From the NCBI GenBank assembly GCA_963734545.1, contig CAVTHO010000008.1, positions 1 to 64,000 of the forward strand: DNA of 64,000 nucleotides, given 5' to 3'. Positions 1,599 to 48,147 of the stretch are shown here, piece after piece. The notes below the pieces were generated by a model. It was not told the DNA's origin and made no database searches. It saw only the letters and a list, made by a program, of their open reading frames with translations. Numbering within the stretch: position 1 is the first letter of the stretch; each line of letters opens with the position of its first letter. Made by a program: the position numbers and the translations under genes. Source of the stretch: an uncultured Spirochaetota bacterium (GTDB lineage Bacteria; Spirochaetota; Spirochaetia; SZUA-6; Fen-1364).

Positions 1599-1794
1599 CA
1601 CCGCTAAAACAATCTCACGCTCTCGTTGCCGTAGCAACACGAACTGGTGGCCATGCAGACGTGCGCCTCTCCACTGACGAGATACTGCGACTCACTCGGG
1701 CCGACTGATGGCACCGCGTCTGACGGGTTCCCTGAGCGCCCGTATCTGCCAACCAACTTGCGACAAAGTCCGAATCCAACGATTGGAAAACTTG

Positions 1795-2011
1795 AGCCCA
1801 CCCTGAAGAACATCGCTCGGGAGCTTGTCGTGAACGTTTGAAAGAACGTCTCAATAGACTGGACCGTGCGGGAGAACGTCAGGGCGCAGTTAAGGGTCAG
1901 GTGAAACGAATCCTCCGCAAGTACGGCCACCCGCCCGACAAGCAGGAGAAGGCAACTGAAACCGTTCTGGAACAGGCTGCCGTTCAGTCGGAGGAATTGG
2001 CGGTCGCGTGA
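1795..2011 (+). pseudogene. hsdR: 3' remnant of type I restriction enzyme HsdR (DUF3387-like C-terminus)
   Basis: Translates across a stop and a frameshift as [68 protein letters not shown], the typical HsdR tail. Confidence 0.8.
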
Positions 2012-2155
2012 TCGGCGTTCTCTTGGGAGTAGCCGCGGGGCAACTCGCTGAGCTGGCCAGTCGCGCCGTGTGTGTGGGTATTTGCTGAATACTTGACATT
2101 TTCCGTCGATAGAGAAGATTTCTACTTGTACCGCGCTGGTGAAAGGAGAAACACC

Positions 2156-2908
2156 GTGACAAGAGTTCTCCTGGCAGGAGAAAGTTGGATCACCCACTCG
2201 GTCCACATCAAGGGATTCGACAGCTTCACGACGGACGAGTACGTCGAGGGAGCCGAAAGGCTGATCGAGTCGCTGCGCACGGCGGGAAACGAGGTCACGT
2301 TCCTTCCCAACCATGTGGCGCCGGCCCGGTTCCCATCGAGCATGGAAGAGCTCGAACGCTATGACGTGGTATTTCTCAGCGACATCGGGGCCAACTCCCT
2401 GCTGATCCATCCGGAAACCTTCACGCGCTCGGTGTCCAAACAGAATCGGATCAGCCTCCTCGTGCAGTACGTCCACGGCGGAGGCGGCCTCGCCATGATC
2501 GGAGGATACCTCTCCTTCTCCGGCATCGAAGGAAAGGCCGGGTATCCCCGCACGGATCTGGCCACCGTGCTGCCGGTCGTCATGACGGAGGGTGACGATC
2601 GCCGGGAAGTCCCGGAGGGCGCCTCGGTGGAGATCGTCGAGCCGGGTCATCCCCTTGTGAAAGGCATGCCGACATCGTGGCCGCAGTTTCTTGGATACAA
2701 CCGGCTGCGCGCGCGGGAGGGTGCCACCGTTGTCGCGCGCCGCGGTGAGGACGTCTTTCTGGCCGCGGGCGTGTACGGGAGGGGCCGCTCGGTCGCCTTT
2801 GCCTCTGATTGCGGTCCGCACTGGTGTCCCCCCCTGTTCGTGGAGTGGGAGCACTACGCTACTCTGTGGAGGAATATCGCGGGGTGGCTGTCACAGCCCC
2901 TGGGCTGA
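2156..2908 (+). CDS. class I glutamine amidotransferase-like protein (DUF1355/GATase1-like)
   Basis: GTG start after GGAG. Motifs RVLLAGESW, HIKGFDSF, YDVVFLSDIGANSLL, GGGLAMIGGYLSF, ASDCGPHWCP. Confidence 0.85.
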   Translation: MTRVLLAGESWITHSVHIKGFDSFTTDEYVEGAERLIESLRTAGNEVTFLPNHVAPARFPSSMEELERYDVVFLSDIGANSLLIHPETFTRSVSKQNRISLLVQYVHGGGGLAMIGGYLSFSGIEGKAGYPRTDLATVLPVVMTEGDDRREVPEGASVEIVEPGHPLVKGMPTSWPQFLGYNRLRAREGATVVARRGEDVFLAAGVYGRGRSVAFASDCGPHWCPPLFVEWEHYATLWRNIAGWLSQPLG

Positions 2909-2926: not shown

Positions 2927-3104
<178 letters not shown>

Positions 3105-3303
3105 ATAATACACACTAGGGAGGACGTGCTCTCGGCGTTTCGGCGCTTGCGCGCCTCCAACGCCTGCCGCACGAATGTCACCGGGTACGGTGACAGAGGT
3201 GAACGAATCGGTCCGTGCAGCCTTGCGGCCGCGCGTCTATGTTTGGGCTTGCGCCCTTTGAGATCGATGAAAAATATGGTCAAGCCTCACGGTAAATTAG
3301 TAC

Positions 3304-3358
3304 GGAGTACCGTTCGAAGGTCTTGGAGCAGGCTTCGCCTGCTTGACAACCTTCGTAC
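3304..3358. repeat. hairpin mini-insertion 2 (AGTA-loop hairpin + long hairpin, GTAC duplicated)
   Basis: Absent from the intact 23S. ACGG-AGTA-CCGT then GAAGGT..AGCAGGC-ttc-GCCTGCT..ACCTTC. GTAC at 3300-3303 and 3355-3358. Confidence 0.85.
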
Positions 3359-3476
3359 TGGTCAGCTCAGTGCGTTGCCGCACGTATACTTCCAGCCTAT
3401 CGACCTGGTTATCTCCCAGGTACCTTCAGGGGGATTGAATCCCCAGGGTTGCCTCATCTTGAGGTGGGTTTCCCAC

Positions 3477-3532
3477 AAATGGTCTCTGCGGACGAAGCCC
3501 GCTCCTGCCATTTGAGCGGTACTCCGCACGCA
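3477..3532. repeat. hairpin mini-insertion 3 (same architecture as insertion 2, opposite orientation)
   Basis: Replaces TT of the intact 23S. Reverse complement reads GCGG-AGTA-CCGC-T-CAAATGG..GAGCGGGCTTCGTCCGC..CCATTTG. Confidence 0.85.
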
Positions 3533-3590
3533 AGATGCTTTCAGCGGTTATCCCTTCCGAACTTGGCTACCCAGCGCCTACCCTTGGCAG

Positions 3591-3616
3591 AGAATGCCAC
3601 GGAGTACCGTGGCCGC
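3591..3616. repeat. hairpin mini-insertion 4 (GAATG type)
   Basis: AGAATGCCACGG-AGTA-CCGTGGCCGC, absent from the intact 23S. Relatives at 3173-3198, 42641-42665 and 48099-48123. Confidence 0.85.
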
Positions 3617-3786
3617 GATAACTGGCACACCAGAGGTTCGTCCATTCCGGTCCTCTCGTACTAGGAACAGCTCCTCTCAAGCAACCAACGCCCATGGCAG
3701 ATAGGGACCGAACTGTCTCGCGACGTTCTGAACCCAGCTCACGTACCGCTTTAATTGGCGAACAGCCAAACCCTTGGGACCTGCTC

Positions 3787-3828
<42 letters not shown>

Positions 3829-4152
3829 TGCCGTCGATGTGAACTCTTGGGCAAGATCAGCCTGTTATCCCCGGAGTACCTTTTTCCGTTAAGTGAGGCT
3901 CATCCACTCACCACCGCCAGATCACTAAGACCTCTTTCGCGCCTGCTCGACATGTACGTCTCACAGTCAGGCTCCCTTATGCCCGGGGGTGAGTGAAGAG
4001 AAAGACTTGGGCGTGCCCCGCCCGAGGGAACTCCCCGGAGCGCGCGAGCGCCGTCTCCGTGACCGCCCTCGGGCGGGTCGCGTGCTGCGGGGGTTCCGTC
4101 CTCGCTCCGCTCGGACCGCTTCGCGCCCCTCCGCCCGCTTGTAAGCTGATGA

Positions 4153-4310
4153 CGTGTAGAATCCCCTCGTGGATGCTGCTGCCTACCGCCCGCTGCCTCC
4201 GTAAGGAGTCTCCTGCGTGAGATTGCCAGCTCCACGAGGGCCCTTTCGTGCACGTAAAACACATGCCCGCTCCTCATCGGGAGTGGTTGCTCTTTACAAG
4301 GATGCATGAT
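4153..4310 (+). ncRNA. putative bridge RNA of IS110 copy 2 (ends approximate)
   Basis: Target loop: stem CCCTCGTGGA/TCCACGAGGG, guides CCGCCCGCT (4186-4194) and GCGTGAG (4215-4221), capped by CTCC-GTAA-GGAG. Donor loop: stem CGTGCA/TGCATG, guides TAAAACA (4255-4261) and TTACAAG (4294-4300). Confidence 0.8.
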
Positions 4311-4331
4311 CGGGAGAGAGGAGGAAGCTGC

Positions 4332-5733
4332 ATGCGGTACAAGGCCATCGGCATCGATCCCGACAGCCAGGGGGCCATATGCACCTTGGTAGACACGGCG
4401 CTCCCCAAGGTCGCTGTCAAAGAGTTCCTGATTTCAGGCGACGGCCTCAGCCAGCTTGTGCAATGGGTAAGGCAACAGCCGGACGCCGTGATTGCTCTCG
4501 AAGGGCGCAACGGTCAGAGCAAGCCCTTCGAGCGTGCCCTGCAGAGCGCCGGCGTGGTCTTTTACTCGTTTACCGCGTACGAGGTCTCCAAGTTCCGTAG
4601 CGCTGTACTGGGGCAAAACAAGAACAACGAGAAGGACGCAGAGGCGGTTGCACGCTACGCTCTGGCCTTGGAGACGCAGAATCGACTGGAACGCTCGCGA
4701 CGCGTGTGGTTCGTCGACGAAGACCTGCAGACCATTACACGGCTCTATTCCCAGAAGCGCCAAGAAGCGACCCGCGAGACGAATCGGCTGTGGAAGGCCC
4801 TGCGCAAGGCCTCGGGGGATCTCTATCTTGCGTTCCGCGGGTCGCACCCCGATTTCCCGTTCACCCAAAGCTTGCTCAAGTTGAAAGGTGTGGTGCAGTT
4901 GCTGGCGGCCAGCCCAGACGTCAGCTCTTGGCATCTTCTTGCACCGCAAGAGCTTCTGCAGCTCGCCGGAGGCTCCCATCGAGGACGCAAGCCACTGCTG
5001 GAAGCCCTGCAACTTCTCTCTGGTCGTCTCCAGTCGTTTTCATCAACGACCGTGCTGTTGATTCAGTCCTCGGCGGCCGTCCTCCGTGTGCTCTTTGACA
5101 CCCTCGAGAAACTGGAAAGACAATTGGGGGAGCAGACCAAACACAACAACGCGGTCCGGTGGCTTTGCGGGCATCCAGGCATCGGTGTGCTCACGGCCGC
5201 AACCATGATCGCAGAGATCGTCGACGTCCGTCGTTTCCCAACCAACAATCATCTCGCCAGCTACGCCGGCCTAGCGCGTCATGAGTACAAGACCGGCCGA
5301 TCCGGCACCGAGATCGCTACCTCCGTGCACAACCATCGACTGAAGAACGCCTTTTTCGCGGCAGCCAGGAACACCACCCTGCACACCTGACTCACACCTG
5401 GCGGCGTACTACCGGTCCCTGATGAAGCGGGGCATGTCGAACACTGAAGCTTACAAGAGAATCGGCCGCGCTCTGGCCCGCAGGTTCTACCGAGGGCTCA
5501 CGGCGCTGAGCGAGCAGCCCGCACCCTCATCTGAAGAGACGGAAGGCGTCACGGCAACCGGATCTGACCGGGAGGCAAATGAAGCCCCAAGCGACATGAC
5601 GCCCTCCGACGCCCATTATACCCCAACGCCCCTGGAAAGCAGCAACCCGCATCCGGTAGCGGCCAAGCGCTGTGCCCGAGCAACTCACGCCGCGACGGAC
5701 CCGAAGGCAAGGAGGGTACGCGTTTCTCCTTGA
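4332..5733 (+). pseudogene. IS110 recombinase copy 2, frameshifted by a 2-bp deletion near 5383 (could be a sequencing error)
   Basis: CTGCATGCACCTGAC in copy 1 versus CTGCACACCTGAC here. ORFs 4248..5390 and 5422..5733 are the two halves. Confidence 0.8.
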
Positions 5734-5851
5734 CACCGCTAAAACAATCTCACGCGTTTGCGGTCGGCCGCTGCACTGGGTCACCGTGAGTCCGTGGTTT
5801 GACCCGGGAGCCTGGAAAAGCGTGATGGCGCCGGCTGTTGTTCTCTAAGGA

Positions 5852-6604
5852 TGTGCAGGCCGTTGCGGTCTCTGCCGCCAGAAGTCAGACCAACTACGTC
5901 CAGCGAGGAGTCAATACTCTCCAACAAGTGTTTCGGGATCACTTCGCCCGCTTCGCCGCCGAGTACGATTCACGCTACGCGAAAGACCTCGGCAACTTCC
6001 GCATCGAGCGTATCTCCCGCGTGGCGACCCGCTTCCTCACCTGCGGCGACTACCCCTTGAGCGGCAGCGGTGTGTACTCACACCGCGAGAGCTGCCAGGG
6101 CGTGGCCCGCATCCGATTTGTGAACCCTGAATGCCGCCACGAGTACTTCCGCCCCTTCTCTTGCAAAGGCTTCTTCCTCTGCCCATCGTGCAGCCAGAAA
6201 CGAACCCTCCTGTTCGCCGAGCACCTCGACGAGAACCTGTTGTTTGCCCTGCCCCATCGACAGTTCGTCTTCACGCTGCCCAGGCTCTGAGGGTCTTCCT
6301 CCGCCATGATCAGCGCCTGTTCGCCAAGCTCTCGAGACTCATTTTCTCGCTGATCGCCGAGTTCTATTCCGCCGCAGCTGGCAAGCCCATCTCCACCGCC
6401 GCCGCCGTGGCCTATCAGCCCTTCGGGGACTCGCTTCGGTTCAACCCGCACTTCCACGCCCTCATCCTTGAGGGTGGATTCGACTCCACCGGGCAGTTCA
6501 AGAGGCCGATGGTGCGCCGTCCTTCCGAGCTGCGCACGATCCTGCGCCACCTCATCAAGATAGGCAGGGCACCGCCGGGACTCGATCCCAGCTCCCTGAA
6601 CTGA
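5852..6604 (+). pseudogene. IS91-family (Y2 HUH) transposase remnant, frameshifted and internally deleted
   Basis: Zn-binding motifs CGD..GVARIR..C.HEYFRPFSCKGFFLCPSC, HRQFVFTLP, HUH motif FNPHFHAL, then a jump to the C-terminal ILRHL..GRAPPG. The central tyrosine region is missing. Confidence 0.85.
6055..6093. repeat. hairpin mini-insertion 5, in-frame 39 bp inside the IS91 transposase
   Basis: GCGGCAG-CGGTGTG-TACT-CACACCG-CGAGAGC. Removing 6055-6093 restores C-G-D-Y-R-Q-G-V-A-R-I-R. Confidence 0.75.
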
Positions 6605-6961: not shown

Positions 6962-9900
6962 CTAGTGACAGCAGCAACCTTTTCCTTTGAAGGTGAGCCA
7001 ATCCAAGCTGTTTCCGTCTATGGTATCTGATGCCTGCCCAAGGTCCAGGATAAAGCGCTTCAGCCATGGATTCTGCATGGCAACGGCTGCGTCGATGCCG
7101 CCGTCACTGCCCCCATCGCTGCCGCCTTGCTGCACCTCGTCCCTGCCGAGGCCGCCGTTCAGGCGGTCGTAATCGCTTCCGCCGTACAGCTTGTCATTTC
7201 CGGCACCGCCGAGAAGCGTATCCCGGCCGGAGCCGCCGTAGAGCGTGTCGTCACCGTCCCCACCGTCCAGAGTGTCCTCCCCCTGCTGGCCAAAGAGGAT
7301 ATCGATGCCGTCACCGCCCAGGATCACGTCATCGCCGTTTCTCCCGTCACAGTCTCTGCCGCCCCAGCCCTTGTCCGGCCGTGCTTCATAACGTACCTCA
7401 CTGTCTCCGGCTGCGAACACAGGGGTCACCACGGCATTGTCGCCAAAGACCACATCATTGCCGCTGCCGGCATCGATGACATCGCTGCCGTTCAGAATGC
7501 TGTGATCGCAATCGCAGTCGCGGCCACCTTCGCTCCCCCACCAGTCACAACCGCCGCAGCTGTTGCCGTGGCAGTCGTGTTCACAGTGGTTTTCAGCGAA
7601 CGGGTCCCTCGTGAGATCATCCGCATCTTTCATGAGAAGATCGGTTGCCTGGTTCAGATCCCTGGCGTCGTGTTTTGTCATGGGACCTTCAAGGATACCG
7701 GGTTGTACCACCACGCCACTATCGCCGATGACCAGATCATTGCCGGCACCGCCTCCAAGGATGTCGTTCCCCACAGCGTAGTCATAGCCGGCACGGAAGC
7801 GAATCAGGTACTGATCTCTCTGCGTCGGAGAACACTTGTCGAAGTCGCCGTGGTCATAACGGATGTGGTCCTTGAGGAGCCCGTCTCGATGCCAGTCCTC
7901 ATGGTCCAGCGCTTTCTTGACATCCCAGAGCTCGTTTCTGCCAACGTCAAGCGGATTGCCTGCCTCGTGCATGAGGGTCTCTGAGGCTGCCACCGGCGTT
8001 ATCATCAAGGCGTTGTCGCCAACGATGAGGTCGTCTCCGGCATCCCCATATATGATGTCCGTCTGCAAGACCAGATCCCTCAGACCAAGATCGATCACAT
8101 CCCATTCCTTGGGCGCCGTTTTCCTGGGGTTGTGGGCAATGGCATCGTCGACGAGAGAGTCGAGCACCTGGAGATGGGCCGCTTTCGCCAGGAAGTCGAA
8201 GTCCGTGGCCATCCATTCCACATCGCGGACAAAGTCAAAGAGCTCGAGGGCATCAGTCTTCAGATCCCCTTCCCGCCCAAGGCCCTGGCGGACCGTGGCC
8301 GGTGCGATCAGGGTCCCGTTATCGCCGATGAGGGTGTCGTTGCCGGTCCCGCCAATGATGGTGTCGTTCCCCACTTCAATCAGCGTGGGCGGGTCAACAC
8401 CCAGGAGGGTGTTCTCAAAGACGTCAAAGTCTACGGCTATCTGCCGCAGGTGCCGGAGCATATCCGCCAGCTGCAGGCTCACGTCCTCACGCGCGTCGTC
8501 AATGCACGACACGCCCGTGTGCATGGGTGCAGAGAAGCTCGCATTATCCCCGAAGATGAGGTCATCGCCGCTGCCGCCGTCGATGGTCTCATTGCCTTGG
8601 AGTACGTCCGTGTGGTGCACCACATCGGGTACGATCGTAATGTAGGGTACAACGGAGGCGCCATCGGTTCTCGCAAGCGCGCTGTTCTCAGCCAACGCCT
8701 GGAACTCCGGCACCACATCCGAGACAAACTCGATCGTCGGGTAAAAATCGGTCAGCTCATCCGGCAGCAGGTTCACCGGTGCGGTGATTACCGTGCCTCC
8801 CTGCGGCAGGGAAACAGGAACATCAGCTCCTTGGGCAATCCCAATCAGCCGGATTCCGTTATAGATCTGCGGGATCGTGGTCTCGAAGGGCACCAGGTTG
8901 ATGGCGCCATCGCCGAAGATGAGGTCCGCACCATCGCCGCCGGAGAGCGTATCACTTCCCCGCTGTCCGAAGATCACATCTTCCCCGTCCCCGCCGTCTA
9001 TGGTGTCATTGTTGGCATCCACGAGGTCGATGAGATAGAGATCGGTATCCCAGGCACCGTTGTCGGAGTTCAGATACTTGCCGCCGTCCGCGGCAAAGGC
9101 ACCGGTCAATACCAGCAGATCCGAACCGAATATCTTCTCTGCCAGCTCGGGATCGGCGCTGCGCAGCGGGGTGGTATCCATATCAATAACGCCGGTGATA
9201 TATCCCACCTCTTCCAGGAACACATCCCTGTGCCACGCCCCGTTTGTATTGAGCCGTGGGGTTCCGTCCTCGTTGTAGTCCCGTACGATCGTGCCCACAT
9301 CGCCAAGGATGATGTCACCGCCTGCACCGCCTGTGATCGTGTCATCACCGAGCTCACCGTATATCTCATCCTCTCCGGCGCCGCCGTCAATGGTGTCGTC
9401 ACCTCTTTGCCCGTGGATGATGTCATCGCCGGGGCCACCGCACAGGGTGTCATCACCATGAATGAGGTCGATGTCATCAAAACGGCTCACATCCCGGATT
9501 ACATCGGCAAAGGGCCCGGGATAGCGCTCCCAGGTGAAATCCTCGCCGGGGATCAGGTGCCTGAGGATCGTGCCGTTGTCGCCCAAGATGACATCGGCAT
9601 CGTCACCGCCGTCCATGAAGTCATTACCGTCAACGCCAAGAAGCACGTTGTGCCCGCCGGTCATATCGTCTTCACCGGCATCTCCGTAGAGAGTGTCATC
9701 GCCCTGCTGGCCGAGGATGAAGTCATCGCCGGCGTCTCCGTGGATGGTGTCGTTGCCGGCGCCGTCATTGTCTGCGGCAAAGATGGAGACAACGTTTTGA
9801 TCTGCCGGCAACGAGGAATCATACAACCCGTGGTCTCCGAGAAGAATGTCGTGGCCTCCACCGCCGTGAATCTCATCACCGGCCGTGCCGCCGAAAATGA

Positions 9901-12900
9901 TGTCGAAGTCTTCTCCGCCGAAAATCGTATCGGACCCGCCGATCGTGGGATCCGTGCTGCGGGCAGTATCCAGGGTCGCGGGATCGCCGTCTCTGTCGAA
10001 CCGGACAACGCCGTTGTCGCCCAGGATGACGTCGCTACCGGCGCCTCCCTCGATGGTGTCGTCTGCAGCCCCGCCCAGGACGATGTCACTGCCGTTGTTG
10101 CCATAGATGCTGTCCGCACCGCCGACCTCCGCATCGCGGGTCGTGACAAGCGCCCGCTCTCTCACCACCCCATCGGTCTGGCGGATCGGCACGTCCGTTG
10201 GCAGCTCGAGTCCGGCACCCGGCACTGTCCTCTCGTCCAGACCGATTCCAAGGCGGCTCTTCAGGTTGCCCTGTTCATCCCGGTAATCCACCCTCCCTCG
10301 ATCGCCAAGAATGACGTCGTTGCCCTGGCCGCCGTGAATCGTGTCGCTGCCTTCTCCGCCGAATATGACCAGCGGCAGGGTCGATGCAGCGGCGTCTACG
10401 AAGTCGTCCCCGCCCTCGGTGTTCAAGGCGAAGAAGCCGTCCACGCCAACGTCCAGGGAAACGGCCACCGAGTCGTCTCCGGCGCCGGTGTTCACCATGG
10501 TCATGGTCGGGAACCCGTCGTCCCTCTTCATGGCACCTTCGATGGAAACCTGGTCGCCTCCCGAGCCGAGGAAGATCTCCAGTTGTTCCATGGTGCCGTA
10601 CCTGATCCCGCCGGACATCCCGAGACCTGTGATGGCATCCTCCGTGAGCGTACCGGTGTTCTGCCCCGTATCCCCACTGTCATCCACGTTCAGGATGTCG
10701 TTGCCTTCCTGGCCGTTCAGCGTAAGCAGAGCGTAGACGCCGTTGAGGGTCCCGCCCATGGCGGGCGCCAGGCTCCCGACATTGATGGTGTCGTCTCCGG
10801 CACCGGTATTCAGGGCCATGGCGGCGCTTGTTCCCCGGATGTTGATGGTGTTGCCGCCGGAGCCAAGGCCGATGTTCAGGTGCTCCAGCGCCTCGTAGGT
10901 GATCCCGTCGCTCATACCGAGGCCGATCACGGCGTTCTCGCTCAGCGTGAGAGTGTGTGCCCCCGTATCGCCGCTATCGTCCACGTTCAGCGTATCCTCA
11001 CCCTCTTCACCGTTGATCGTGAGCGGGGCGCCGATGGCGTTGACGGTCCCGTCGCTTCCCGGCGCATTCGAACCGACGTTGATGGTGTCATCTCCGCTGC
11101 CGGCATTGACGGTCATTGCCGCGCCAATTGTCCGGATGTTGACCGTGTCTTCATCGGTGCCCGCGTCGATCGTGACCTCTGCATCGGTCGCCCGCACGTT
11201 CACGGTGTCGCTGCCGGCCCCGGCCGCGAGCGTGGTCGTGCCGGAATGGGTACCCTCGATAGTGAAGGTGTCACCACCGGAACCCAGGCCGATGTCCAGG
11301 TGCTCCAGCGTCTCGTAGCCGATGCCTTCCGGCATTCCCAACCCGGTCAGCTCGATGGCGCTCAGGATGCCGGTACCGCCCAGCGCGTCCCCGGTGTCGT
11401 CCACGTTGAGCGTGTCCTCACCTTCATCGCCGCGCACCGTCAGGCGCGCCGCGATGCCGTTCACCGTCGCCGGCGACAGGCTGCCAACGTTGATCGTGTC
11501 GTTGCCACTGCCCGCATGAATGGTCGTTGCACCACAGATGGTCTGGATGTTGATGGTGTCTCCACCGCTATCGGTCGTCAGGCTCGTTGTCCCGGAATGC
11601 GTGCTCGCAACGGTGAACTCGATGTCGCTGCCGGTAGCCAGGACGATCCTCAACACCTCGACTCCGGTGTAGGCAATCCCGTCCGGCATCTGCAGGCCGG
11701 TGAGCTGCGTGCTCGTGAGGTTGCCGGGCTCGATCGACGGGAAGACCGTCGTGAAGGTCAGTTCGTCCTGGCCCCCGAGCGCCCCGCCGCCATCGACGGT
11801 GAGCATGCCGTTGATCGCGGACCCCTCGGCGGGCAGATCAATCGTCGTGTCGAACGGCCCGTCCGCGGACGGGGCCACGCTGATGAAGTCGGATCCGTCG
11901 CCCGCGTCGATCGTGGTAGGCCCGTTGACGGCGCCCACCTCGATGACGTCCCCCCCGGCACCGGTGCTCAGGACCGTATTGGTTCCATCGCACGTACTCT
12001 CGATCGTGAAGTGATCTCCCCACGCGCCAAGGGCGATGCGTATATCCTCCACCGAGTAGTAGGCGATTCCCGCCGCCATGCCGAGCCCGGTCAGTTGCGC
12101 CCGGGTCAGACGACCGGGGACGGCCTCCTGGTCGTCCCGGTTGTCAACGGTCAGCGCATCGGTTCCCTCACCGGCATTGACAACAAGCTCCGCGGCAATG
12201 CCACCGAGTGTGCCAGGGGTCCCCGGGGCGTTCGACGACACGTTGACCGTGTCATTTCCGGCGCCCAGATCCAGTGTCGCCGTCGCGCCGATCGAGTGCA
12301 CGTTCACCGTGTCCGCGTCGTCGCCCGTGTACACTTCCAGCACGCCGCTGGTCGCATGGATGGCCACGCTGTCGCTGCCCGTCCCAGTGTCCAGCACCGT
12401 GGCGCCCGAATGGGTATCGACGATCGTGATGTCATCCGCGCCCGCGCCGCTGCTCAGGCTGAGTGACTCGAAGTTGCTGTACCCGACCGCCGTCTGGCCG
12501 AGTACCTGAACCGTTGTCGCATCGACGCTCAACGTGTCCGCACCGTCCGTGAGATTCACCTGCAGGCGGTCGGTTGTCCCGGTTCCGCCATCGACGCTGA
12601 GCGTTCCGGTGGTGATCGGATAATCCAGCGTGATGACGTCGTCCGCCGCCTCGCCGCGCAATGTGAGATTCCCGGTCACGCCGGTGCCCGTCAGCGAAAG
12701 CTGGTCCTCTCCCTCTCCACCCGCCACGGTCAGGTTTTCCACGTCGATCAGGGTCACCACCGTGTCTGAGAACTTCACATCGAGACCATCCACCGAAATG
12801 CCGTCGGCGTCCGCGGTGCCGATGACGATGACACTGTCGCCGGCCGACGACGCGCCGCCGTTGACGATGATTGTGGTGCTCGCGCCGGCCGCCAGGTTGA

Positions 12901-15900
12901 CGGTGATCTCGTCGTCCCCGTCTCCGCTGGAGAGGGTGACGGTCGTCGGGAACCCGGAGGTCGCCGGATTGACGGTGATGGCGTCGAGACCGCCCAGGGT
13001 GCTCAGATCGATCTGACCAATGTTGAGATAGTCCGTGGTACTGCCGTTTCGGCTCACGACCAGTTCATCTATCACTACCACGTCGTCGACGTTCGTGGTG
13101 CTGAGCTCAATGCGGTTGTCCCCGGCCCCGCCGTCGATGACCCCGCTCACGACTGACGTCGAGGCCAGGATGAAGCTGTCCGCCGAAGCACCTCCGGTGA
13201 GATTCTCGAAACTGGAGAACGTGGCAGCGCCGCTGTTGATGGTGCCGGCGTCGATACCCAGATTCCATTCGTTGGTCGCGTCCTGTCCGGTCAGATCGTC
13301 GATCAGGGAGGTGCCGACCAGATTCTCAACGCCGTTCAGCCGTCCGCCGATGGCGGTGGCGCTTTCGTCCGCCAGGTCGACACTCACAGCCGAACCGCGC
13401 CCGGCATAGGTGAGCGTGTCGGCCCCCTCACCGCCGTCCAGGTCTCCTTCAATGGCAGCGGTGTCGACGGAGAAGAGGAAAGTGTCTCCGTCCGCGCCAC
13501 CGGTGAGACTTTCCATACCCCGGAAGACCAGGGGGACATCGCCGTCAATGCTTCCTTGACCGGGCCCTGTGATGTGCCAGGTGTTGTCGCCGTCGGGTCC
13601 GATCAACAGGTCGATCCCGTCGCCTCCCGTCAAGTCTATCGTCTCGAGCGTGGGCAGTTTGCGTACGATGATGAAGGTGTCGTTGCCACCCAGGCCGTCA
13701 AACGTCAGGGCGGTCGCGGTGCTGATGACGTACGGATTCCCATTGATGGTCAGGATTCCACCGTTCAAAACGATCGTATCGTCGAGAGGCGTGCCGGCAG
13801 ACGGTACACCGTTCGATTCCTGCACCTCGATCGTGTCGTCGAACAGAACCGTCTTGTTGCCGACAGGGAATTGACCGTTGGCCGTGCCGCTGGCGGCCGC
13901 GCTGGCGGGCAGTCTCAAGGTGTCCTCATCGCCATCGATGCCCTGCGCGGGGCCGCTGTCGCTGATGCTGACGAAGGGGCCGACGGGCTCAAGTCCCTCC
14001 TCCACCTGATAGGTGTCGGAGCCGTCATTGCCGTCGAGGACGACGCTGTCGGCGCCGGACTCGAGCACGTAGAGAGTGTCGTCGCCACCGAGTCCGCCGA
14101 TGCGAACCTCCTCGATTCCCGCGTAGTGGATCTCGGGGTTCATGGTGATGGAGGTGGCGAAGACTCTGAAGATATCCGGTCCTTCGGTGCCGAATATGGT
14201 GAGTCGATCGGCGGCGCCCGCGGAGTCGGCCACAATGGCGCCCGCCACGGTCGCCAGGCATACCGTGATCTGGTCGGACCCGCCACGCCCGTCGATCACG
14301 AGCGGCCCGCTCCACGATTCGGCTTTGATGATGGTGCCGGTATCGCCGCCAAGCAGCCACGCGCTGTTGAAGTTGGCAATCCTCATCGATTCGTCTCCGG
14401 AGCTCAGACGGTCTGTCTGGAGCGTCCAGTCGACATTCGCGTCGGCGACAAGCGTGTTGGTGCCGGCGCCTGCGTCGAAGAAGAACTCGCCCTGGACCTT
14501 CACGTACTCGAGGCCTTCCGGAATCTCCTCGCCCGGTTCCAGTCCACCGAAGTCGCCGTCTTCGATGACGTTACCGACTGCCGGCGGCGCCAGCTCGCCC
14601 GAGTGGACGGTCATCGTGTCGTCGCCGGCACCGGTGGTGACGGTGAAGTTGGCCAGGCCGTAGGCCGTGAGTCCCTGGCTTCCGATCGTGAACTGATCGT
14701 CATGCGAGCCGGTTGAGATAGACACGGCAGCGATGTCGAAAAAGTTCAACGTGGCGGTTGGATTGCCGCCGAGCGTGCCGTGGAGCACATTTGCCTGGGC
14801 GCCCGCAATCAGCGTCTGCTGCAGGACAAGTTCCGTGACATTCCGCGGCGGCGACACCGAACGAACGTAAACGTATCCGGTACCGTCACTATCGATGTTT
14901 TCGCCGGTCCGCTCACCAACCTGCGGCGCGCCGAGCAGCGCGGTATTCCCGTCGATGGCAACCGAGTAACCAACATTGTCACCCGCCCGCGCCCCGTTCC
15001 CGCTTATTGCGCGTGCTTCCGGCAATCTACCCCATTGGCCGTGTGGACGTCCGTATGCGAACACCTGACCCGCATCGAACAGCGTGACACCATCGATATT
15101 CATGACGTCACGGAACGGGGCTCCGATGAGGGCGTGATCTCCGTCGAGGGTGACCGAGAAACCGAACCCGTCACCGGCGGCGGCATCACTCAGGGCGACG
15201 CGCGTGTCCTGCGCCCATCCACCGCTACCGTTCTCGAAGAAGTAGGCCGCACCGGAGTCGAGGACCCCGCCGCTGTCGGCGCCCGAGGCGCCAATCAGGA
15301 TCGACGATCCGCTGATCGACACCGCCTGGCCGAAGTGGTCGCCCGGCGCGCCATCGGCGGCGAAGAGGACAACTTCGAGTGTCCAGCTTGCTCCGTTCTT
15401 GACGTAGACGGTCGCACTTCCTTTGCCCGCCGCCGCGTTCGGCGCACCGACCACGATCCGGCCCGCATCGATGGCCACATCGGTGCCGAACTCGCTGCCA
15501 CTGGCGCCGGCCAGTGTCACGGGAACTTCGGACCAACCCGTCGCAGTCAGGCTGAATACATACGCTGCCTCTTTGCCCACCGAACCGACGACGATGGTGT
15601 CGACATCGATACCGACGGAGTTGCCGAACAGGCGGGAGCCGGCATGCGAGATGACAGCGGCCTGCTGCCAGACCGTGCCAAGCCGTTCGAACACGCAGGC
15701 CGCGCCGCTTCCCCTGCCAGGCGCGCCGACGACAATGGTGTCGCCGCTGATGGCCACACTGCTGCCGAAATCGTCGCCAAGCGCGATACCGTCGGACTGG
15801 AGGATCGCCTGCAAGGTCCACCCGGTGCGTGGGTCGTTCTGGAAGACAAAGGCCGCGCCGGCATTGTCGTAGTCTTTCGCTCCGAGCACCGCGGTATCGC

Positions 15901-18900
15901 CGTCGATGGCGATGTCGGAGCCGAGCTTGCTGCGCTCGATCGGCTCGGGAACCGTTACGGCTCCGGCGACGCTCCAGGCCGGACCGCGTTGGCGGAAGTT
16001 GTACAGGATCTCGCTGTCCTTGGTGCCGACCACGTAGTGACCTTCGCTGACGATCGAAGCGCCGACGCCAAAGTGCTTTGCCGCCGTATCGTTCGCTGTG
16101 CCCAGGGTATTAAACGGTAGCAGCGTGGGGCCGATTTGCGCGTTCGACGTAGCGTCCCTCAGGATCGCAAACCCGGCACCGCCGTTCCCTCCGGGACCGC
16201 CCATGAGCATGCGGTTGCCGGCGATCGCGATCGACCCTTGTATCCCGTAGCCCGCAGAATCGGGCGCGTTAAGGCCGACTGGAATCGACAGCGTGTAGCT
16301 CGAGATCCCAAAGTCGCCGACGATACCCGCACCCGGAAATCCTACGAACAGCTCGCCGGCACTTTGCAGGCCGAGTTCGGTCCCGAGGTCAACATCCGGA
16401 AGATTGCTCGGATATGTATAGTAGTCGGTGGTCCTCAGCGGATCGGCGCTGAAGCCGCCCGCGTACGCAGTCCATGTGTTCGTGACGGCGGCACTCAAAT
16501 TATAGACCGCTACCCGTTCCCTGCCGGGCGCACCAACGACGACCAGGTTGCCGATGATGTCGACGCTGGTTCCCCAGCCGGCGTTGTCGAGACCGGAGAA
16601 CGTGTTAGGCACGGTCTGCCAAGTTCGGCCTCGCGCCGCCATATTCAGTCGTCCGTTGAGGAATCCATTCGTGTATATCGTGATCTGGACCTGGTCATAA
16701 TTCGGATCGAATCTTGGATTGTGGAGGTGGGGATGGCTGTTGATTTCCTGATAGACATAGTTCGAGGTGGAGCCGTCCCAATAGGTCCAGCCGTAGGTAC
16801 TCGTGGAGCTCCAACGCCACGTGCTGTCGCTGTCGTAGGTCGTCCAATCGCTCCAATAGCCGAGCCACGATTCGGGCAACGCGCTATCGTCAGGCATCAG
16901 GAAGAGGTAGGGGGTCGTCCCCCACACGCCGTTGGTCCGTTTGTAGACGAACGCCGCACCGCTCGTCGTCAGCGTTACGCGGTGAGGATCCAGAGACGCC
17001 GGCTGGTTATCCGACTTGTACTGCACCGTCTGCGACGGCGCGCCGACGACGATCAAGTCACCACTCACGGCAACTGATGAGCCGAAGCTCCAGTCCTGGC
17101 CAGAAATGAGGTTCTTTCGCGACCAGTTTTCCCCGCTCGCATCCCGCTCGTAAATCGCGATCTGTCCCAGATGCGCAGTTGTGACTGACGGCGCTCCGAC
17201 AACCAGCGTGCCTGCATCGGCATCGAGATCGACACCAAACTCAAAACGATTGTCCGAAAGGGAGAGCGTCTGCACGTAACGCCAGGAAAGCCCCTCGTTG
17301 ACGTAGACATCGACGGTACCGATCGCCGAAGAGGTTCCCGGCGAAGCGACGAACAATGTGCGCGAACTGGCGTCGTAAGCGGTGCGTGAGCCGAAATTCG
17401 ATGTTGTTGATTGTGCGGGGTCCGGCAGTATTTCCGCACGCAGTGAGGCGAGCGTGACGGCCGGCAGTTGACCGTCGGTGGTGAAGGTCAGGAACCCGCC
17501 GTTGTCGTCGCTGGTCGGTTCGTTGTGCCCCGGCAAGCCGACCATGATCCGCGTGCCGCTGATTGTCACTCCGCGGCCCAACCGATCGGCGGTCTGGTAC
17601 TGGTCGATGAGCGGGTCGCCGGTTTGCGATCCGGCGCCTTCCGCGCCGGCGAAGTACAGTCGACCGCCACCGGACGATCCGCTGGACCGCACCCAGGTCG
17701 ACGGGAGACCCGAGTTTCCGAGCGCGTCCAACTCGTAGAACGCATAAGCCGCGCCGGCATCCATGACGGAGGCGCTGTCGGTACCGGGGGCGCCGACGAC
17801 CACGTAGTCACCGTCTCCATCCACCGACGAACCGAACAGATCGCCGGCAAAACCCTCCTGCGTGGATTCCGATTGCGGCAGTCCGTCGTCCGCGGTCAGG
17901 CGAGCGACACGGACCCAGTGACTGCCGATCTCGTCGAAGACGAAGGCACGACCTTTGTCACCGCTGTGCCATCCTTGCCATTCCAGTTCGGCGCGCCGAC
18001 GACGATACGTGAAATCCCGCCATCCATCGCAATCGAAACCGAGGAACCGAAATGCTCGCCGGCGGTGGGTTCCGACGGTGTCACGTTCTCGTCCAAGGAC
18101 CATCCACTCGCTCCACGCGCATAAACCGTGGCGAACCCACTGCGAATATCGAGGACCAGGCCGCCGGGGGCTCCGACGACGAGACGATTGCCCGAGATGG
18201 CCACCGATCGGCCGAAATCGTCCAAACTGTCGTTGGGCACGCTGAGCGGGGCGCCTTTGGCGATCCATGCCCCGGTCGCCGACCGCTCGAAGATGTAGGC
18301 GGAGTCGTGGGCGGCATTCATGTTGTCCGCGTCATCGCCGGGGGCACCGACAACGGCGACATTGCCGCTGATCCCGACCGATTCTCCAAACCGAGCATGC
18401 TCCAGCGTTGTCCCCGAATCCGGTGCCGGCGTGGGGGCAAACAGCTTTGTCTTCTGCGTCCAGTAGCCATCGACTTTCTCGAATATGTACACCGCCCCCG
18501 CTTCGGTGCCCCGCGAATCATCGTCCGGGGCGCCGATGATCAACCTGGTCGCGCTTTCGTCAATGGCGACAGATTTTCCGAACCCCTGGCCCCCTCCGAT
18601 GCGGTCCTGGGGCAACAACTTTGCGACCTGATGCCATTCATTGTTGATCCACTCATACACCAGCACTGCTCCGCAGGACGCTCCGTCCAGTTCCGCGCCG
18701 ATGATCAGCGTGTTCCCGCTCGATGCGATCGCGCCGCCGATATGCTTCGGTTCCAGGGCCTGGACGTCCACGATGTTCAGCTTGTCACCGACGATCGGCG
18801 GCGTCCACGAAACCACACCGTCGACAGTGACAACGTGGAGCACGAGGTTCTTCAGCTCCAGATCCGCGACCGCGACGGAATCGAGATCCAGAACGGCGGC

Positions 18901-24900: not shown

Positions 24901-27900
24901 TCCCGATACCGGGTCGACACGCCCCAGTGCCACGATATGTGAGCGCGCCTCGTCTGTCGCAAGCTTGAAGGTGTCGCCGTCGACCTGAGTCACGTAATAG
25001 GTGACGCCGTCAGTGAGACCCCCGATGGCCTGATCGGTGACCGTGCGCAGGGAGAGTTGAGTACTTTCGTCCACCGGATCCGTCGAGCGCGACAGTGCGA
25101 TCGGATTGGGCAGCGTCGCCGGAACGGGTTCGGGCGTGGCATCCGGATCGCCGGGATCACCCATCGCTTCCGCAAGCGTGCGCGCGAGCTGGATCTCGTC
25201 CGGCTTCGCAGGATCGAAGATCACGAAGTACCGATCGCCGCTGGTGAGCTCAGGAATGGGCGCGCCGCTTCCGGCGGTATAGATCACCTCGTCACCGGCA
25301 AGCAGCCCGTGATTCGGGCCGAGATAGATGTTGTTGTTGTCGGCCGGGGCGGTGTTCGCCGCGGGATCCTCCGCGTTGTATGTTCCGCCCACGACATCCA
25401 CGCCGGGGAGGCCGAACTCGACGGCACCGGGCTCACGGTAGGTCACCGCCTGGCCATCGACGAATCCATGGCCATCAAGGGTGATCGTGTCGCCTGTAAT
25501 GTCGGAACCGGAAAACTCTTTCGCATCGGCCAGAGTGACTTCAGGATCCTTCAGCTTGATGGTGGTGCTGTCAATCACGACGACCTGGTAGGTTTTGCCG
25601 CTCTCGAGGTTGCCCACGCCTGAGGGGCCGTCCGACTGGTAGATCACCCGATCACCATCCTGCAGGTTGTGCGGCGCGGTGAAGGTCAGCACGTCCCTCG
25701 TCGTATCCACCGCCGCAGACTGGAAGGTCGTGCCCAGTTGAAGCTCGGAGTCGCTCGTCTTGATGACCCCGTAGGTCCGGCCGTTTCCGAGGCCGCCGAT
25801 GACCGTTCCGCCCTTGGAGTCGTAGGTCACGGTATCACCGGTGAGCAGGCCGTGTTCGAGGCCGAGGTCGATGGTATCTGTCGGCAGACTTACATCATCC
25901 GCCGCGTTGAAGGTTCCCTCTGCAGTCGGTGTGGGCAGTTCGCCGTGGCGGGCGCTGATGGTGATGTCGCCGCCCGCTTCGATGATCGTGTGCGGCAGAA
26001 TCTCGGTGGTGACGTTCGTCACCGCCTTGGCCGTGGCATCCAGCTTCGTCACCGCCACCGCGCCGCCGGAGGTCGTCCGGGAGGCGGCATCGGCATCTCC
26101 GACCGAGGTGGATTCGATCACGACATCGCCGCCGGCCCGAATGGTGCCGCCGCCCCTGGCGGTAACCGTGGGAGCGGTATCGGCAATGACCGTGGAGAAT
26201 CCGATGGAAACCAGGCCGATCGCAAAGGATTCGGCACCCGCGGTGGTGGCGTCGTAGCCGTCGGCGGTCACGCGCACATTGATCGCACCGGGCGTCCCGC
26301 CGGGCCCGGTAATGGTCCCCAGTGCCAGCGCCTCGGTGGTTGCGGTGATTTCGGCGGTGGGGTTGCTCTTGCCGAAGGTCACCGCGCCGATGGAGAAGCT
26401 GCTCGTCCGGGCGTTCGCCCTGTTGGTTGTCACGGCGACCACGTCGAGGTTGCCGCCCGGCACCGACACCGTCGCGCCGGATGCGATCTCGGCACGCGTC
26501 GTGGAGTCGATCGAGGAGGTCACCTCGAGGAAATCCAGGGTGATGGCACCGACACCGGTCGAAGACATGGCGCCGCTGGACAGGGAGTTCGACTCGGCCC
26601 TCACGACAAGGTTGCCCGAGCTCATGGTCAGATTGCTGCCGGATTTGATCTGGGCTTCGGTCGCGCGGGTGAGAGTGATATCGCTGGTGGCCTTGTTGAT
26701 GGCAATCGCGCCCGCCGCAACGACCTTCGTCTTGGGTGCCGCGGCATTCGTGTCAAAGGCCTGCACGTCGAGCGTATTCGCCGTCACGCTGCCGGCTCCC
26801 TCGACGTAGGCGCGGGTCGCGCCGCCGATGGTCGCTTCCGCATCCAGCAGGCTCACGGCTATCGCGCCGCCGGAATTGCCCCTGGTCACGGGCGCGGCAA
26901 GCGACGTCGACGTGGCGTGGACGATGACATCGCCTCGGTCCGCGCTCAGCGTGGCGCCCTGGAGGAACGCCTCGGTGGTGACTGTGATCTCGGTCTCCGA
27001 CTTCGCCCCGGCCGGCGCCGACACCAAACCCGATCGACAAGGCCGTTGCCTCGGTTCGGGTCTCGATCACCGGATGGGAACTCGAGATCACTTCGATGTT
27101 TCCACTTCCGGCGTTTATCGAGGAGTTCCGGATGAAAGCCCGTACCTTGTTTTCAGCCGCGTTCATGGCCAATCCGAGACCGACCGCGACGCTGATCACC
27201 CCGCCGGCAGCCGCGATGGAATCGATCCTCGCATCGATCGCGGCGGTGTCGTCGGCTTCGACGGAGACGGCGCCGGCTGCCTCGACATCGGCGGAGTCCT
27301 CAACGAATGCAGTCGTCGTGCTGGTGATGGTATTGAGAGCCGAGGCGAGGCCGCCGCTTATGGCAATCGACGCCGGCGCGATCGCGATGGCGGCGGATGC
27401 CGCCACGGTGATCGCAGCGATGCTGTTCGATTCAGCCGCGGTCACGGTTACGTTCCCGGCCGTCGCCTCCAGATCGTTCGCATTGCTGATCGAGGCCTGG
27501 ACCAGGTTGTTGATTGTGTTTTCCGCCAACGCCACCCCGACCGAGAGTGAAGCGGCCCCGGTACCTGCGAAGGAAACGGCGATCGAGGCGGCTCCGCCTA
27601 CCGCATGGATCGCGGAGCTGTCGGTCGCCGACACGCTCACGGAGGCGGCGGTGATGCCGTTCTCGCCATCACCGTCGATGAACGCTGCCACATGGTTCGC
27701 GATACGATTGACTGCGGACACCCCCGCGCCGCTCGCGGCAATTCCCGCGACGCCGCCGCCGGCGATCGCGGCGGAACCGGCAAGAACCACCGCGTCAATC
27801 CTCTCGTTCGCCAGCGCCGCCAGCGTGAGATCACCGGAGGCATTGATGCTCGAGTCGCGGAGGTAGGCCATCACCTCTGCGGCCTGCTCCTGTCCTTCCT

Positions 27901-41591: not shown

Positions 41592-41696
41592 AAAATTCTT
41601 CGCAAGTATGGGTACCCGCCGGACAAGCAGGAGAAGGCAACCGAAACGGTGCTGGAACAAGCCGCCGTGCTGTCGGAAGAATGGGCGGTAGCTTGA
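41592..41696 (+). pseudogene. hsdR: second 3' remnant of HsdR
   Basis: [34 protein letters not shown], homologous to 1910-2011. Confidence 0.8.
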
Positions 41697-42465: not shown

Positions 42466-42581
<116 letters not shown>

Positions 42582-42746
42582 ATATTATGCGCTAGGGAAT
42601 GAACGTGCTCTCGGCGTTTCTGACGAAACGCCTGCCGCACGAATGTCACGGAATACCGTGACCGCGGTGAACGAATCAGTCCGTACGGCCTTGCGGCCGC
42701 GCGTCTTTCTTTATTGGGCTTGCACCCTTTGAGAGCGATGAAAAAT

Positions 42747-45758
<3,012 letters not shown>

Positions 45759-46008
45759 TTTTCCATCGTTCCCTTGCTTAGCACGTAATCCACGCCAGGT
45801 AATGACGTCGATCACGTCTCTTCTCCGCGGCTTCGCCTCTCAGGCCAGCTCCACCACGGACTCTCTTCACGCAACGCACGCCTGGTGCCATCCAGCGCAC
45901 GTTCGCGTATTCGTTCACCCTTCCCTAGATTGTCAAAGAACAGCCACAGCACGCGTATCTTGCCGATGTGATTTCTGCCGCGGTTCCCGCGGCGACATCG
46001 CGCCGCTC

Positions 46009-46084
46009 TGGTGGAGGTATGGGGACTTGAACCCCAGACCTATGGCTTGCAAAGCCACCGCTCTAGCCACTGAGCTATACCCCC
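46009..46084 (-). tRNA. tRNA-Ala(TGC) in the 16S-23S spacer
   Basis: GGGGGTATAGCTCAG..TTGCAAG..GTTCAAGTCCCCATACCTCCACCA, 76 nt with encoded CCA. Confidence 0.97.
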
Positions 46085-46310
46085 AGGCTTGGCCGCCGCA
46101 CCATCGCGCAACACTCCCGTCAGCATGGCTCGGCGGGTTTGTGCTGTGTACGGGATGCGGCATATATACAGAAAAGGGAGGAGAGTTTGAGAGAGAGCGA
46201 GCTATTCCGCGCTCGCTCTCGCCGTCCTGCTCTTCCACGCTTTCGCGTGGACTTGCGCAGGCCGGCTGCCGCTCGCACGGATTCGCGCCTCTGTATACAG
46301 AGGCGCTACT

Positions 46311-47862
<1,552 letters not shown>

Positions 47863-48147
47863 TATAGAACCTGTCCTTGCGGACAGGTTTTATACTTCGT
47901 TACACGCGCTTCCGACGCCTCGCTGACTTTGCGACGCCGTATAGCGCGTTTTCGCCCCAGACGCAGTTACCCGCGCCCGTGACGGACCCGCTCACCTCAT
48001 TCTCCCCTTCCCTTCACTGTCAAAGATCACGGCCGTGGCTTCACACGGCTCGGCCCCAGAGACGGTACTCCCCCCCTCGGATTTTTTGGTCTGAGGAGAG
48101 AATGCCGCGGATCACCGCGGCCGAAGTACTACCCTGGAGGCTTTCTT

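Follow-up and report, generated by a model that had tools for sequence, protein, structure and literature searches.

Bridge recombinases insert, invert or excise DNA at sites picked by two short RNA segments. New orthologues are mined as genome-writing tools, with thousands of IS110 bridge RNAs already predicted, and IS622 is reportedly another characterised bridge recombinase. The window considered here, meaning the whole 64,000-nucleotide (nt) stretch of DNA that was analysed, spans the first 64 kb of contig C8 in a spirochaete-like sediment genome (5.1 Mb, 10 contigs). It carries at 4140-5750 an IS110-family element of 1,611 bp, referred to as copy B, whose left end encodes a predicted bridge RNA. 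A further copy, copy A, lies at 5-1615 and is 97% identical to copy B (mean column identity of 98% in the pairwise alignment), with no third copy in the assembly. The probability that 4140-5750 is an IS110-group insertion sequence (IS) with an IS621-like bridge-RNA mechanism is estimated at roughly 0.9.

The founding IS110-group bridge-RNA system is IS621 of Escherichia coli (PMC11208160; PMC11208158; structures 8wt6-8wt9). According to the main text of Durrant 2024, its bridge RNA places the target loop first and the donor loop second, the CT core takes part in each pairing, and the 3' side is complementary over 4-7 nt (PMC11208160). The element in the window follows the same layout, with a long non-coding left end (192 nt, against the 191 nt given for IS621), a short right end, the same CT core at both junctions, neither inverted repeats nor target duplication, and a target loop that precedes the donor loop; the relatives are built alike. 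The IS1111 group, consisting of the seekRNA elements, shares the same two protein domains and an RNA-guided choice of site. The text of Durrant 2024 describes IS1111 elements with a short left and a long right end and with long subterminal inverted repeats (PMC11208160). The non-coding RNA region upstream of the gene and a right end of ∼17 nt past the stop codon, the long-left and short-right layout of the IS110 group, therefore place the element in that group and not in the IS1111 group. The preliminary description of this locus had proposed a new programmable recombinase. The element is a further member of the IS621-type bridge-RNA family, so that novelty holds at the level of the member; as a new kind of system it was overstated, since the mechanism was published in 2024 and programmability is presumed from IS621. 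The copies and the parts of copy B are as follows.

5-1615, + strand: copy A, with the left end at 5-194, an intact recombinase gene at 195-1598 (467 amino acids, aa), and the right end and core up to 1615
4138-4139, + strand: core CT at the left junction, the sole sequence common to both junctions
4140-4331, + strand: left end with the predicted bridge RNA, 192 nt, starting with TGTAAG (the right donor half) and alignable with 54 distinct relatives
4332-5390, + strand: first part of the copy B recombinase gene, 352 codons to a premature stop, with the Pfam domains DEDD_Tnp_IS110 and Transposase_20
5392-5733, + strand: remainder of the copy B recombinase in another frame, 90% identical to copy A residues 347-467
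5740-5748, + strand: left donor half TAAAACAAT, located in the right end
5749-5750, + strand: core CT at the right junction
5751-5755, + strand: right target half CACGC, the same after copy A (1616-1620), in the unoccupied C4 repeat and in two metagenome contigs with an unoccupied site

The ends of the element are defined by its relatives. Copies A and B agree as far as CTCACGC and bear no relation beyond it, and this point of divergence alone leaves it undecided whether CACGC belongs to the element or to its flank. The right ends of relatives always read ...CTTGAC-(9 nt)-AAAACAAT-CT, followed by variable flanks, and their left ends begin CT-TGTAAG. As the relatives stop at AAAACAAT-CT with varied flanks, CACGC is assigned to the target flank, which gives an element of 1,611 bp with a CT core. 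The junction CT|TGTAA is present in nearly all of the 53 relatives with a readable left junction.

The matches between the left end and the junctions had been read in the preliminary description as guides, and all of them are recovered. The left flank at 4131-4139 is CCGCCCGCT, identical over 9/9 positions to 4186-4194, and the right flank CTCACGC at 5749-5755, found again at 1614-1620, is the reverse complement of GCGTGAG at 4215-4221 (7/7). For the donor, CT+TGTAA at 4138-4144 recurs in reverse complement as TTACAAG at 4294-4300 (7/7), and TAAAACA at 4255-4261 equals 5740-5746 (7/7), a match that had rightly been called partial. The latter extends to 9/9 once a single base, C4262, is left unpaired. 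Among 46 tabulated loci, any of the four bases occurs at the position of C4262, and 37 have TAAAACAAT as their right end; a variable base beside a constant right end fits an unpaired, bulged base. As in IS621, a 9-nt sense left target guide is combined with an antisense right target guide and the core is contained in both; unlike IS621, with its 4 nt, the right target guide is 7 nt long, one base of the left donor guide is bulged, this guide lacks core pairing, and the target is GC-rich. The predicted guides are listed below.

4186-4194, + strand: left target guide CCGCCCGCT, 9/9 identical to 4131-4139
4215-4221, + strand: right target guide GCGTGAG, reverse complement of 5749-5755 and 1614-1620
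4222-4223, + strand: candidate handshake guide AT, complementary to the AT at 5747-5748 that precedes the core (donor positions 6-7)
4255-4264, + strand: left donor guide TAAAACA-c-AT, equal to TAAAACAAT (5740-5748), 9/9, with C4262 left unpaired
4294-4300, + strand: right donor guide TTACAAG, reverse complement of 4138-4144

These matches exceed what random sequence of the same genome provides. To estimate chance, the same geometry was placed at 2,000,000 random positions of the genome. A 9-mer directly to the left of a 192-nt stretch recurs inside the stretch in 8,449 placements, the reverse complement of a 7-mer 1,609 nt downstream recurs in 44,093, and a match of the right-donor-guide type is found in 36,853. 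Both target-guide-type matches occur together in 191 placements, and in the right order at a spacing of 10-40 nt in only 30 (1.5e-5). At this frequency, chance is not a serious explanation of the matches.

A further likeness to IS621 concerns the handshake bases. The text of PMC11208158 reports for IS621 that, once strands have been exchanged, donor positions 6-7 are paired by the two bases that follow the right target guide. The candidate handshake guide occupies the corresponding place here, and across the 46 loci AT accompanies ..AT-CT in 34 and AA accompanies ..TT-CT in 4; four further CT-core loci pair at one of the two positions, and four rows have a doubtful end call. For the donor loop, the bases GA at 4301-4302 show no pairing with target positions 6-7 (CG) in copy B, and no pattern emerges.

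The relatives allow the guides to be compared with many different flanks. An exact-pattern scan of metagenome contigs with the donor loop gave 91 stretches, and 80 loci were retrieved from them. With the protein as query, a scan of reference genomes added one relative (L003), a search of 40 related genomes added a few more, and the donor-loop pattern in 401 genomes of the phylum matched the window's own genome alone. In the metagenomic loci the donor loop is nearly constant, as forced by the pattern, and both strands of the first loop differ widely. The first-loop strands of each element were scored against its own flanks and against those of unrelated elements. On the left (53 readable loci, 38 distinct pairs), the mean score is 7.08/9 for own flanks versus 5.02/9 for foreign ones, and a score of at least 8 is reached by 16/38 own pairs versus 11/1,382 foreign pairs. 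On the right, in fixed register (37 readable loci, 35 distinct pairs), the means are 6.4/8 and 3.47/8, respectively, and 20/35 own pairs versus 14/1,150 foreign pairs score at least 7. Judged from these sequences, the predicted target guides of the first loop clearly track each element's own flanks across the relatives. The comparison of other copies with the guides, suggested in the preliminary description, thus comes out in favour of its reading, with copy A sharing CT-CACGC and the guides of relatives tracking their own flanks. A compensatory change in the donor is present in L007, a relative found outside the pattern, in which the right donor guide is CTACAAG and the left end CT-TGTAG; after reverse-complementing, this locus is an ordinary member.

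Some of the related loci have unusual surroundings. L008 (G008:C55:1-4190) is a degenerate relative that has stops in its gene and sits in the site specified by the guide of L091; it may be a hybrid or a decayed copy. In L073 and L114, the sequence CGCGGTCAA-CT-CCAGCGCC lies ∼1.4-1.5 kb downstream of the donor loop, beside another repeated unit. These sequences resemble unoccupied target sites of the L060 type, and the L060-type targets may be repeats as well. Two metagenome contigs, L044 (right end near 2632) and L096, have the left-end start TGTAAG immediately after the ...AAAACAAT-CT of a right end; such end-to-end junctions could stem from two elements in tandem, from a circle, or from a repeat wrapped around in assembly.

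The left end folds into two modules, each consisting of a stem, an internal loop and a hairpin, and this structure is conserved. The RNAalifold consensus of 56 distinct sequences contains 31 pairs, 11 of which are changed on both sides, in three helices: the outer stem of the first loop, the outer stem of the second loop, and the hairpin inside the second loop. The inner hairpin of the first loop is lost in the alignment; taken one by one, 42/46 distinct inner segments of relatives form a hairpin of at least 4 bp, with 27 distinct arms. The single-sequence fold of copy B has the same parts and an unremarkable overall energy (z = -1.5), and a search of the left end against Rfam returned no family at E<=1. 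Aligning and folding homologous left ends, a check that had been proposed beforehand, therefore yields a two-module structure with compensatory changes. The order of the IS621 layout, a target loop followed by a donor loop around a CT core, is accordingly backed by guide-flank covariation, by stem covariation, and by the family and fold of the protein described below. The structural elements, and the promoter-like hexamers at the ends, are the following.

4165-4182, + strand: 5' arm of the target loop outer stem (RNAalifold columns 13-30 with 85-99, compensatory pairs), found in the single-sequence fold too
4197-4208, + strand: target loop inner hairpin CTCC-GTAA-GGAG (single-sequence fold)
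4225-4239, + strand: 3' arm of the target loop outer stem (RNAalifold)
4241-4246, + strand: 5' arm of the donor loop outer stem, pairing with 4308-4313 (RNAalifold columns 102-108 with 174-179)
4265-4290, + strand: donor loop inner hairpin (RNAalifold columns 128-136 with 145-155, compensatory changes); other folds agree
4142-4147, + strand: -10-like hexamer TAAGCT, read by eye
5730-5735, + strand: -35-like hexamer TTGACA, read by eye, overlapping the stop codon; CTTGAC is conserved at the same place in relatives

When the ends are joined, TTGACA, the 15 nt up to the core T (5750) and the TG at 4140-4141 place a 17-nt spacer before TAAGCT, again by eye, and the TTGAC motif stands at a constant distance in the relatives. 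The candidate promoter TTGACA-17 nt-TAAGCT would thus arise solely across joined ends, as reported for IS621. A promoter scan of the linear element, with a tool that reads linear sequence only, detected none at the ends. An internal promoter-like TAGAAT at 4157-4162 is not claimed, since transcription from it would start inside the first stem.

The target lies within a GC-rich repeat, much as IS621 inserts in repetitive extragenic palindromic elements.

3987-4137, + strand: GC-rich repeat carrying the target, its last 7 nt CCGCCCG (4131-4137) being the left target half

Including the core (3987-4139), the repeat is ∼150-170 nt long, contains a 12-bp inverted repeat (GCCCCGCCCGAGGG ... CCCTCGGGCGGG), and matches no Rfam family at E<=1. 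BLAST detects three copies in the genome, namely the one here, one at the end of contig C10, and one at C4:443752-∼443930; two of them are occupied. Contig C8 starts only 4 nt ahead of copy A and begins CGCT-TGTAAG, and contig C10 ends ...CGCGCCCCTCCGCC. We infer the adjacency of the two contigs; with the C10 end (...CCCCTCCGCC) joined to the C8 start, the left junctions of copies A and B would be identical. At C4, the repeat is uninterrupted (...GCGCATCC-CT-CACGCG...), with the same right half and a left half that fits the guide at 2/7 positions. The exact 14-mer target has no other genomic occurrence, and three sites are one base off. Two metagenome contigs of run X2 pass from the left flank (to 4139) directly into CACGCAAGCG..., the site without the element. 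The GC-rich repeat is the natural landing site of this IS.

Two other candidates concerning the site were set aside. A contig of X5 joins 4138 to 5756 with a G between them; it carries no weight as an empty site, as it is not the exact predicted site, and its match, 30 letters on one side at 90% likeness, probably comes from another repeat copy or organism. The GC-rich repeat was also considered as the end of the neighbouring broken IS91 element, and the C4 copy has no IS91-like sequence beside it. This broken IS91-family transposase lies to the right of copy B at 5838-6604, with Zn_Tnp_IS91 and Y2_Tnp domains in two overlapping frames. Between the IS copies, a truncated ribosomal RNA (rRNA) copy at 2975-3986 (minus strand) consists of 5S (2975-3102) and the last ∼640 nt of 23S (3343-3986), and is 98% like the complete operon at 42466-47863. 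Its 23S homology ends abruptly at 3986, where the GC-rich repeat begins, and a similar 5S fragment precedes the repeat copy at the end of contig C10. The truncated rRNA copy may reflect an IS-linked rearrangement or an assembly problem.

The protein belongs to the same family and adopts the same fold as the IS621 recombinase, with an N-terminal RuvC-like and a C-terminal Tnp domain. The open frame of copy A (195-1598, 467 codons) matches DEDD_Tnp_IS110 (PF01548) with 48.2 bits (cut-off 29) and Transposase_20 (PF02371) with 59 bits (cut-off 21.3), and the first part of copy B scores alike. A profile built from 30 relatives finds IS621 chain 8wt6 with an E-value of 1.5e-11. In the AlphaFold model (predicted local distance difference test, pLDDT, 80.7), a floppy loop spans residues 318-324 and a disordered tail starts at 397. 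All top 10 Foldseek matches to this model are IS621 and ISCro4 chains, with E-values from 1e-12 to 8e-11 and template modelling (TM) scores by target of 0.47-0.49; the best is IS621 8wt9 (E 1.1e-12), followed by ISCro4 9t56 (E 2.5e-11). Sequence identity is low, ∼16-17% to IS621 and 15-16% to ISCro4, which is of the same family and fold. Unlike the 326-aa IS621 protein, the 467-aa protein has a longer coiled-coil part and the tail of ∼70 aa. Residues D9, E57 and D102 are present and invariant in the relatives. A weak match of the Tnp/Nop-like part to TIGR-Tas (NF052498, 47 bits against a cut-off of 100; 9mty, Foldseek E 6.7e-07) covers only residues 248-352; membership of that system was rejected, being below the family cut-off and with no tigRNA array.

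By analogy with IS621, the element would leave as a circle in which its right end is joined to its left end at one CT. The circle joint would set TTGACA of the right end 17 nt from TAAGCT of the left end, and the resulting promoter may drive the transcription of a bridge RNA of roughly 160 nt from the left end. This RNA would carry two internal loops, in the second of which UAAAACA(c)AU and UUACAAG could pair with the joined ends TAAAACAAT-CT-TGTAA. The 467-aa recombinase, as a tetramer held by the RNA, would then catalyse an exchange of strands at the CT cores, presumably with Thr321 as the nucleophile, and the circle would insert at CCGCCCG-CT-CACGC within the GC-rich repeat.

Several observations weigh against this assignment and its mechanism. 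In the RNA, pairing of the left donor guide stops short of the core CT, and two pairs of the donor outer stem are broken in copy B. The fit to own flanks is poor in some relatives, with 4/9 in L008, 5/9 in L055 and L107, and 4/8 in five right flanks. Many loci are close kin, so that the covariation counts are not independent trials, and the search pattern fixed the donor loop, such that donor covariation rests on few cases. No circle junction of the element was seen among the matching public metagenome contigs, which cover small shares only. The best NCBIfam family, NF033542 ('IS110 family RNA-guided transposase', match over residues 6-388), scores 128.3 bits and falls below its cut-off of 140. 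In the active site, the DEDD tetrad is incomplete, as the residue aligned with D102 of IS621 (D11, E60, D102, D105) is Asn99, and the nucleophilic serine is missing, with Thr321-Gly322 aligned to S241-G242 of IS621. The element has just two copies in 5.1 Mb. As assembled, neither copy is fully intact: relative to copy A, copy B has a 2-nt deletion near 5383 that shifts the frame and leads to a stop at 5388-5390, and the left target guide of copy A, CCGCCGCT, is one C short and fits the site at 6/9.

The two substitutions in the active site are properties of a clade. The position of Asn99 is Asn in 42/43 relatives and in 117/121 of a wider set. At the position of Thr321, Thr is found in 114 and Ser in 7 of the 121 relatives, the following Gly is invariant, and Thr321-Gly322 stand at the same distance from the AGL motif as in IS621. 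Lys precedes the Thr in 47 of the 121, which argues that no neighbouring Ser could substitute. The text of PMC11208158 reports that mutation of Ser241 or Asp102 abolished recombination by IS621 and that Asp102 holds the Ser241 loop via Gly242. As the hydrogen bond of Asp102 could be made by Asn as well, and a hydroxyl is retained with Thr, the Thr/Asn clade may well be active. The clade comprises at least 290 proteins matching at E<=1e-10 and is mostly sediment-borne. That it runs the IS621 reaction with a covalent link through Thr321, loop-holding by Asn99, a right target guide of 7 nt and a bulge in the left donor guide is a tentative proposal, to which somewhat less than even odds are given. 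A literature search returned nothing on a threonine nucleophile, which is not proof of its being unpublished, and the word threonine is absent from the main text of PMC11208160.

The damage to both copies raises the question of whether the element is a dead relic, which would keep its identity as a bridge-RNA IS110 element and no longer move in this genome. With the frame of copy B lost to its premature stop and the guide of copy A no longer fitting the site, neither copy is complete as assembled; the copies differ by ∼3%, so that neither is a recent duplicate, and the surroundings are rich in broken elements such as the truncated rRNA operon and the IS91 transposase. Against this, the 467-aa frame of copy A is intact and keeps the residues that are invariant in 43 relatives, and its protein could act in trans with the intact RNA and ends of copy B. 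Copy A protein on copy B RNA and ends would make a complete system, as predicted from their sequences. The indels may also be assembly errors. The left end of copy A lacks two single bases, one in the left target guide and the other at column 24, both within 55 nt of the contig start, and the guide lesion, 53 nt from the contig end, may be such an error. The TG missing near 5383 in copy B is present in 4/4 covering contigs of 3 other runs, indicating that the deletion is private or an assembly error, and a full-length protein with 93% identity (P0002) exists elsewhere. A loss of mobility in this genome is considered less likely than not, while still deserving to be taken seriously.

The repeated words could also be DNA signals read by the protein, in the manner of subterminal copies bound by a transposase, and not RNA guides. 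They lie within ∼160 nt of the left end, the usual place of transposase binding sites, and the bridge RNA is a prediction from sequence. These words sit, however, in two internal loops of a structure with compensatory stem changes, and each pair of words comprises one sense and one antisense member, exactly as in the solved IS621 complex. They change together with the flank between elements, which a fixed protein surface does not explain, and the protein fold is that of IS621; direct reading by the protein is accordingly very unlikely. That the matches are a product of chance in GC-rich, repetitive local sequence, with 153 genomic 14-mers at no more than 2 mismatches from the target (4 observed in the window versus 2.2 expected), is negligible as an explanation given the joint chance of 1.5e-5 for the target pair alone and the same architecture with different words in dozens of relatives.

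The remainder of the window contains other features. Right after copy A, a 416-codon open frame without a Pfam match occupies 1604-2854 (minus strand), and a part of it (1909-2011) is 83% like 41594-41696, beside the complete rRNA operon. A 3,768-codon open frame at 6962-18268 (minus strand) carries FG-GAP and RTX calcium-binding repeats and probably encodes a giant protein that is secreted or exposed at the surface. At 27476-31395, a 91-nt stretch is present in four copies that are 63-70% alike and 1.2-1.4 kb apart, which suggests a run of paralogous genes or domains.

The IS621-like element of the window provides a fully readable natural example of a bridge-RNA system, in which target, donor and guides, as well as candidate handshake bases and a candidate split promoter, can be assigned from sequence. 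Its source is a spirochaete-like sediment genome, and dozens of relatives carry differing guides. With thousands of IS110 bridge RNAs predicted before, its usefulness in practice is modest. What stands out is the pair of Thr and Asn substitutions shared by the clade, together with a right target guide of 7 nt, the bulge in the left donor guide, and a target within a GC-rich repeat. The more interesting point is biochemical, as Thr and Asn occur clade-wide at two positions that are essential in IS621. If the clade is active, its members would be the first natural bridge recombinases with a threonine nucleophile, and would provide a set of orthologues with GC-rich native targets.

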